Source: Escherichia coli
GTDB lineage: Bacteria; Pseudomonadota; Gammaproteobacteria; Enterobacterales; Enterobacteriaceae
Assembly (NCBI RefSeq): GCF_003018115.1
Contig: NZ_CP027457.1
Direction: 5' to 3' (one strand)
DNA: 64,000 nucleotides
This document shows, in pieces, positions 45,458 through 46,093 of the stretch. Position 1 is the first letter of the stretch. Each line of letters begins with the position of its first letter. The notes under the pieces are model-generated. The model was not told the DNA's origin, ran no database searches, and worked only from the letters and a program-made list of their open reading frames with translations. The translations under genes and the position numbers were made by a program.

Positions 45458-46093
45458 TCTTCTGAATCACCGGGCGACAAAATATAACTGAGTTACAAAT
45501 AAGTACCAGTCGAATGAGTATTGTATTAAGAATTTTTGAGTATCGCTGATACAACCAGAAAACAATGCTAGCGCAATATTATAGGGCCAGCAATTGAGAT
45601 TATTAGCAAAAGCATGTTAAGAATTAATCACCGAATTTATATATTAATTATAGTAAGGCAATGAGCTATTTTTGATAGTAAAAATAAAACAGTTGATTTG
45701 ATATATTAAATTAACAAATTAATCTTGATGGCAGTCTGATTATTGGTGAGGTTTATAGGTCAGTTTTTTTCGCCAGCTGTTAAAGGAATAGAATAGTCGT
45801 ATAAAAAAGGGTGTTCTGGAGCGTGTAAAACAACATCTTCACCTTAATGGCGATACAGTTGGCTGAGAGTCAGCAGGGGAGCAAATCACCTGCAAATAAA
45901 CACGGCGCATGCTGGCGCGAATATCGCGGATGCGTTCGAGGACAGAAGAACCGACAGGCGGATTCTTCAGTCGCTCATCGTCCATCACAAAACCTTTGAT
46001 CAGGTATTCCTGAAGCCGATTGAATATTGAGCAGTAGAAAATCTCTGGATTGACAGTATTACAAGGGGTTGGAGAACGTCAGAAGAGGTATTT

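Follow-up and report, generated by a model that had tools for sequence, protein, structure and literature searches.

The tRNA-Sec gene selC is an integration site for islands with P4-type integrases, among them LEE, PAI-I, SHI-2 and others. One further selC-linked element, the Salmonella island SPI-3, has been reported at tRNA-selC with rhuM among its genes (PMC3680342). A different kind of description exists for the DNA beside selC in Escherichia coli K-12, in whose genome 78 AT-rich regions, termed promoter islands, contain many overlapping promoter-like sites and bind RNA polymerase, yet give little full-length transcript (PMC3661553, Panyukov & Ozoline 2013). Table 1 of that study includes the entry ‘3834632_331 selC(+)/setC(+)’, which is associated with a predicted foreign gene and was H-NS-bound in all of the ChIP studies compared (column ‘A’; PMC3661553). 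By genomic SELEX, the sigma-S and sigma-H holoenzymes have also been found to bind constitutively in the selC–setC gap, with peaks at K-12 positions 3834856 and 3834954 (PMC5493296).

The selC–setC spacer and its distribution in E. coli

The stretch of E. coli DNA analysed here, hereafter denoted the window, is 64,000 nt long and contains a single tRNA gene detectable by ARAGORN, selC (tRNA-Sec, anticodon UCA; 46094–46188, minus strand), which scores 83.8 bits against Rfam RF01852 and is identical to selC of MG1655. Its 3′ end points into a spacer of 636 bp (45458–46093), beyond which lies setC (44273–45457, minus strand), encoding a sugar efflux transporter of 394 aa with 98.7% amino acid identity to K-12 SetC. 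The first-pass annotation had described this spacer as AT-rich and enlarged. Both its length and its low G+C content (38.1%, against 50.2% for the window) are confirmed, although the composition is uneven, with 31.6% G+C over 45458–45853 and 47.8% over 45841–46093. Ranked by G+C content among every 331-bp window in the 64 kb, an AT-rich core of this size (30.5% G+C) belongs to the lowest 0.3%; setC has 45.7% G+C. Further 331-bp windows below 33% G+C lie at 8000–8700, 17470–17920 and 34730–39620, the last within the eilA/eip/iatC island described below.

The enlargement does not survive comparison with K-12. In MG1655, selC occupies 3836222–3836316 and setC starts at 3836953, leaving a spacer that is also 636 bp long, and in ten further E. 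coli strains its length is 634–638 bp. The spacers of the window and of MG1655 are collinear from end to end, differing by 19 substitutions and two compensating 1-nt indels. A spacer matching that of K-12 in length and sequence was what the first-pass annotation had named as its own refutation; on length this is the outcome, and the identity is 96.7%.

A probe across the junction of spacer and selC matches without interruption in 2,489 (46%) of the 5,426 complete E. coli genomes surveyed, and this K-12-type arrangement, which is that of the window, is the commonest state of the locus in the species survey. The AT-rich part of the spacer is found in 3,629 of the 5,426 genomes. In about 1,140 (~21%) the spacer is present, but an island parts it from selC or a portion of it is deleted; a cassette with intact rhuM and without setC occupies the locus in 842 (15.5%), and about 950 have other arrangements from which the spacer is absent. 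Islands at selC can leave the spacer untouched: in strain 042, selC and a 24-nt copy of its 3′ end bracket the island, and the spacer is intact and wholly outside it. In one genome lacking the spacer, an integrase gene and IS1 lie beside selC and setC is truncated.

About one third of E. coli genomes lack setC and the spacer. A scan for SetC among representatives of 100,044 species, in which E. coli is represented by what we take to be the type strain ATCC 11775, carrying the rhuM cassette without setC, and in which sister species are not comparable at this locus, returned only SetA/SetB-type paralogues of 65–72% identity. Neither selC nor the spacer was found in the best 80 loci of that scan (BLAST of all 80; tRNA scan of 10). 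These distributions are consistent with setC and the spacer being accessory DNA specific to E. coli.

YicL of the window (yicL, 43239–44162) is 99.7–100% identical to its counterparts in other strains, whilst YicJ (yicJ, 46424–47863) is 96.3–96.7% identical to its counterparts in K-12-type strains and 93% identical to that of a B2-type strain; of the two flanks of the selC hotspot, the one with raised diversity is the yicJ side. On the setC side of selC, some 4.4 kb away and past yicS, the window contains an accessory island (approximately 22600–41700) with eilA (encoding a HilA-like regulator), genes for IpaD/SipD-like and YopB/SseC-like type III translocon proteins, a gene for a SycD-like chaperone, and an inverse autotransporter gene of about 12 kb (iatC/air). 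Only 742 of the 5,426 complete genomes carry this island, the best match being that in strain F9792 (99.7%). The window thus does carry selC-linked accessory DNA, located outside the spacer that had been flagged.

The rhuM relic and the selC-proximal end

No integrase-sized ORF is present between selC and setC in the ORF list, the longest ORF within the spacer being 56 aa, and the reported absence of an integrase is upheld. The accompanying description of the spacer as non-coding and free of ORFs passes over a RhuM-family pseudogene fragment (45854–46015, minus strand; 162 bp). This fragment, which tblastn, Pfam, PGAP annotation and its position in MG1655 each identify, is the K-12 pseudogene yicT (b4653). 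By tblastn it aligns with residues 121–185 of the 345-aa RhuM of strain AVS0787 (44/65 identical, E = 5e-22), with one gap of eight codons and one of three relative to RhuM. The 54-aa translation passes the threshold of Pfam PF13310 (Virulence_RhuM; 47.6 bits against a cut-off of 33.7) and covers profile positions 52–98 of 252; it falls short of a full RhuM-domain ORF and matches the family only as a pseudogene fragment. Approximately 120 N-terminal and 160 C-terminal codons are missing and, because both termini are lacking, we regard it as a relic and not a gene. In MG1655, yicT (3836425–3836556) maps to 45854–45985 of the window, and PGAP annotates a ‘rhuM, RhuM family protein’ pseudogene (incomplete, both termini missing) at the same place in ten strains. 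A literature search on yicT returned nothing relevant.

Pairwise diversity across 11 strains is 0.031 in the relic, as against 0.035 at third codon positions of setC. The setC gene is under purifying selection, as indicated by a diversity of 0.005 at codon positions 1 and 2 compared with 0.035 at position 3. The value for the relic is as expected for dead DNA, drifting at a neutral rate. Its DNA is 77% identical to full-length E. coli rhuM, and it is thus not derived from a rhuM allele now present in the species. The survey shows the same separation, with the relic (at least 90% identity) in 3,671 genomes, full rhuM (~77% identity to the relic) in 843, and nothing in between; a second rhuM match occurs in only 4 of 4,513 genomes.

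A distant BLAST search of the spacer against plasmid and phage collections gave foreign matches only over the rhuM portion (query 429–559). For the AT-rich segment (45458–45853), no homologue was found in these collections except in records that hold the E. coli spacer itself. Two such records, GenBank MG065686.1 and MG065691.1 (named Campylobacter phage A18a and A11a), contain the complete E. coli selC–setC spacer at 96.7% identity, presumably through contamination or mis-assembly. Four PLSDB records (NZ_OL790696.1, NZ_CP141089.1, NZ_OL790811.1 and NZ_OL790812.1) are 4–5 Mb long and evidently chromosomes, and their matches do not represent plasmid carriage.

On the selC side the rhuM homology stops abruptly at 46016. 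The 63 nt that follow (46016–46078, minus strand) match neither rhuM nor its upstream region, and they are joined to selC by a 15-nt trailer (46079–46093, minus strand) which is homologous in every locus type examined (rhuM islet, integrase islands and K-12 type). Diversity over these 63 + 15 nt is neutral-like (0.038; 11 strains). In strain CFSAN004176, which has an integrase-bearing island at selC, the island arm next to selC shows a weak, positionally consistent similarity to the 63 nt (z = 4.4, reached by 4 of 2000 shuffles), whilst no similarity was found to a second integrase-bearing island or to the rhuM islet. Tentatively, the 63 nt may be the decayed arm of an island attachment site.

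The island of CFSAN004176 (L087, 1826–17825) is a 16-kb selC island with two integrase genes, IS600 and a methylation-associated defence (MADS) cluster; at its far end a 38-bp Ag43 fragment is fused to the C-terminal half of the rhuM relic, at a junction equivalent to 45944 in the window. This junction coincides with the 24-bp gap of the relic, and 45944 was considered as a candidate recombination hotspot; the junction is an Ag43-fused deletion scar seen in only six genomes, and the coincidence was treated as chance.

When the selC 3′ end with its trailer was aligned against 44201–46078 (spacer and setC) in search of a degenerate copy, the best local score was 16, below the shuffle mean of 18.6, in agreement with the first-pass annotation, which had reported no duplicated tRNA 3′ end. 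Such selC-end repeats are readily found by comparison in strains 042 and AVS0787. An 18-nt near-repeat, probably the ‘18-bp motif’ noted previously, is formed by AGGTCAGTTTTTTTCGCC in the spacer (45757–45774, plus strand) and AGATCAGTTTTTTCCGCC upstream of selC (46254–46271), which agree at 16 of 18 bases. It was rejected as an att-like repeat: the spacer copy has indels or substitutions in four of ten other strains, K-12 included, whilst the partner is invariant, present in all locus types and part of the core selC upstream region. The near-repeat is probably a coincidental match between T-runs.

Alternative cassettes between yicL and selC

Comparison with ATCC 11775 delimits the DNA that can be replaced at this locus. 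Homology stops at 44191, 29 nt before the start of yicL, and resumes at 46079, 15 nt past selC; the interval between (44192–46078) comprises setC, the AT-rich spacer and the rhuM relic. In ATCC 11775 its place is taken by an alternative of 2.28 kb with a hypothetical gene and an intact rhuM. In all, intact rhuM directly follows selC, with setC absent, in 842 of 5,426 genomes including this type strain, and the two cassettes are mutually exclusive. The intact gene shares the strand of selC, from which it is 52 bp away on the downstream side; the relic has the same orientation and lies 78 nt from the selC 3′ end. A segment of roughly 1.2 kb that holds the intact rhuM is bounded by selC and by an imperfect 30–34-nt repeat of the selC 3′ end plus a 12-nt trailer (GAAGAGGCATTTTGGC----GATCACAGGAGTCG). 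A degenerate att repeat of this kind is what the first-pass annotation had proposed to search for; these strains have it and the window does not. It is this occupation of the same position and orientation by an intact rhuM in 842 genomes, together with the reported presence of rhuM in SPI-3, that leads us to count the spacer as a scar. The earlier proposal of a scar left by a selC-linked element therefore holds as regards the rhuM relic in the gap, but the scar is old, shared with K-12 and about two thirds of E. coli genomes rather than specific to one strain, and already annotated.

The spacer is very probably the standard K-12-type selC–setC region, a decayed and immobile remnant of horizontally acquired DNA beside the selC hotspot, and it now provides setC with its upstream region. 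The anatomy, the rhuM homology, the K-12 identity and the species-wide distribution are direct observations. Read outwards from selC, the region consists of the 15-nt trailer, some 63 nt of further sequence, the 162-bp dead rhuM fragment and about 400 bp of AT-rich DNA up to the setC start. Two of the properties of an island are evident, namely atypical composition (30–46% G+C against 50%) and patchy distribution; a tyrosine integrase and a tRNA-end repeat are absent, and because neither an integrase nor a flanking tRNA-end repeat is present, the element is considered immobile. The same absence counts against this explanation where arrival is concerned, as there is no surviving att repeat or integrase to show that the DNA came in by site-specific integration.

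Arrival could have taken another route, in which the interval entered E. coli already decayed, by homologous recombination through yicL and selC/yicJ and with no integrase involved in this species. Such an exchange of allelic cassettes would account for two sharply bounded, mutually exclusive alternatives of the selC–yicL interval and for a K-12 type that has neither integrase nor att repeat, and the difference between YicJ (93–96.7% identity) and YicL (99.7–100%) is as expected near a recombination hotspot. It concerns only how the DNA arrived, however, and leaves its nature unchanged, since an island-type ancestor somewhere is still needed to account for the rhuM fragment; moreover, the B2-type rhuM islet has a selC-end repeat, from which it follows that site-specific insertion of rhuM-bearing DNA has happened at this locus. 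We hold exchange to be a genuine possibility, albeit a rather unlikely one.

A more far-reaching proposal can be built on the same two cassettes, if both are ancient. Both begin with rhuM sequence, from lineages of only 77% DNA identity, and elements bearing rhuM would thus have reached selC at least twice, with rhuM as a recurrent ‘first cargo’ tied functionally to selC-targeting elements, as in SPI-3. The AT-rich block, kept as an H-NS silencer or insulator that had evolved there, would then separate acquired cargo from a tRNA gene with high transcription. We put this forward as speculation that is probably wrong in this full form.

The AT-rich segment and the place of the locus among known systems

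The AT-rich segment (45458–45853; 31.6% G+C) must hold the promoter and the 5′ leader of setC. We placed the published K-12 features on the window by collinear alignment together with an offset between K-12 genome versions, which we take to be 1,977 bp at selC/setC. The listed promoter island then maps to about 45471–45801, and the two SELEX peaks to about 45577 and 45479. By this alignment, the AT-rich core of the window is the orthologue of the K-12 selC/setC promoter island. The alternative suggestion of the first-pass annotation, that the spacer might be a regulatory region, accordingly finds support for its AT-rich part, in the form of K-12 data on the orthologous promoter island and the sigma-S and sigma-H SELEX peaks. 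Direct searches of the spacer added little to these data: a strict sigma-70 consensus scan, which is insensitive and misses the promoter of selC itself, gave no sites on the minus strand and one on the plus strand (3.1 expected), and near-matches to the H-NS high-affinity motif were not enriched, with two matches, a number reached by 21% of equal-sized tiles.

Across 11 strains the diversity of the AT-rich part is 0.022, somewhat below neutral. Conservation is strongest in the 79 nt directly upstream of the setC start codon (45458–45536, minus strand), where one site segregates, as against 31 in the next 317 nt, and these 79 nt probably constitute a leader or core promoter. A 32-codon ORF with a TTG start (45467–45565, minus strand) terminates 10 nt short of the setC ATG; it could encode a leader peptide or could simply reflect conservation of the promoter or leader.

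We infer the mechanism of the AT-rich part by transfer from K-12, on the strength of the 96.7% identity between the two spacers. It would behave as it does in K-12, with RNA polymerase bound at many overlapping promoter-like sites beneath a coat of H-NS, and this coat would hold down the expression of setC, a gene that itself belongs to the acquired cassette. The conserved final ~80 nt would carry the working leader or promoter of setC, whilst the rhuM fragment would have no role.

It has also to be considered that the AT-rich part hides a small gene or a small RNA, for which the 32-codon ORF is an example. The ORF exists, and diversity is below that of neutral sites, especially over 45458–45536, but conservation of this kind is equally well explained by a promoter or leader. 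In addition, no Rfam family other than tRNA-Sec was found over 45200–46500, even at E ≤ 1, MG1655 annotates only yicT in this region, and there is no convincing terminator, the only candidate being a weak 5-bp stem. A hidden gene or small RNA is thus improbable.

The conserved 79 nt and the K-12 RNA polymerase holoenzyme peaks would likewise suit a native regulatory spacer of a vertically inherited setC, with a fortuitous similarity to rhuM. The statistics of the homology and the patchiness of the distribution both contradict this reading: the rhuM match has an E value of 5e-22 and lies above the curated Pfam threshold, it has been annotated as a pseudogene by two independent efforts, about a third of E. 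coli genomes and every other species representative scanned lack setC and the spacer, and the G+C content of 30–46% departs from the 50% of the window. We consider it highly improbable.

A recent, strain-specific excision scar with an enlarged AT-rich footprint, the leading idea of the first-pass annotation, can be dismissed: selC is indeed a heavily used integration site, with an island splitting the spacer from selC in many of the ~1,140 genomes mentioned above and adjoining integrase genes in others, but the K-12 comparison refutes this idea, as the length equals that in K-12 and varies by only a few bp in ten strains, the junction is shared by 2,489 genomes, there is no att repeat, and resident islands such as that of strain 042 lie wholly outside the spacer.

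The spacer, read as an old remnant of acquired DNA, is in itself ordinary; its relic was already annotated (yicT/b4653 and PGAP) and its AT-rich core already published as a promoter island. Its value is modest, as a worked example of a tRNA integration hotspot that keeps old debris, the debris here being a rhuM fragment of 162 bp together with AT-rich DNA that has become the upstream region of a transporter gene, itself acquired. The species survey adds a population picture of the selC locus across 5,426 complete E. coli genomes.

Among described systems, the closest is the selC–setC region of K-12 MG1655, which has the same flanks, orientation and length of 636 bp, with the rhuM/yicT relic at the same position. 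The two differ in that the frame of the relic is open in the window and has an internal stop in K-12, a difference without functional meaning in a fragment that lacks both ends. To the K-12 promoter islands the AT-rich core is tied through its listed orthologue, which exceeds 300 bp, is very AT-rich, is associated with a predicted foreign gene and was H-NS-bound in all K-12 ChIP studies compared; the high promoter density by which PlatProm scoring defines such islands is not reproduced by the strict but insensitive consensus scan. The intact rhuM islet of B2-type E. coli (ATCC 11775, AVS0787) resembles the window in having a RhuM-family gene directly downstream of selC on the strand of the tRNA gene, but it has the full 345-aa gene, a selC-end repeat and no setC, whereas the window retains residues 121–185 and no repeat. 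Salmonella SPI-3 shares the reported combination of a tRNA-selC location with rhuM. Lastly, the selC islands with P4-type integrases use the same tRNA target and occupy the same locus in other E. coli, in some strains of which integrases adjoin selC, whereas in the window the site is vacant but for an old relic, with no integrase, no att repeat and, within the selC–yicL interval, no cargo beyond setC.
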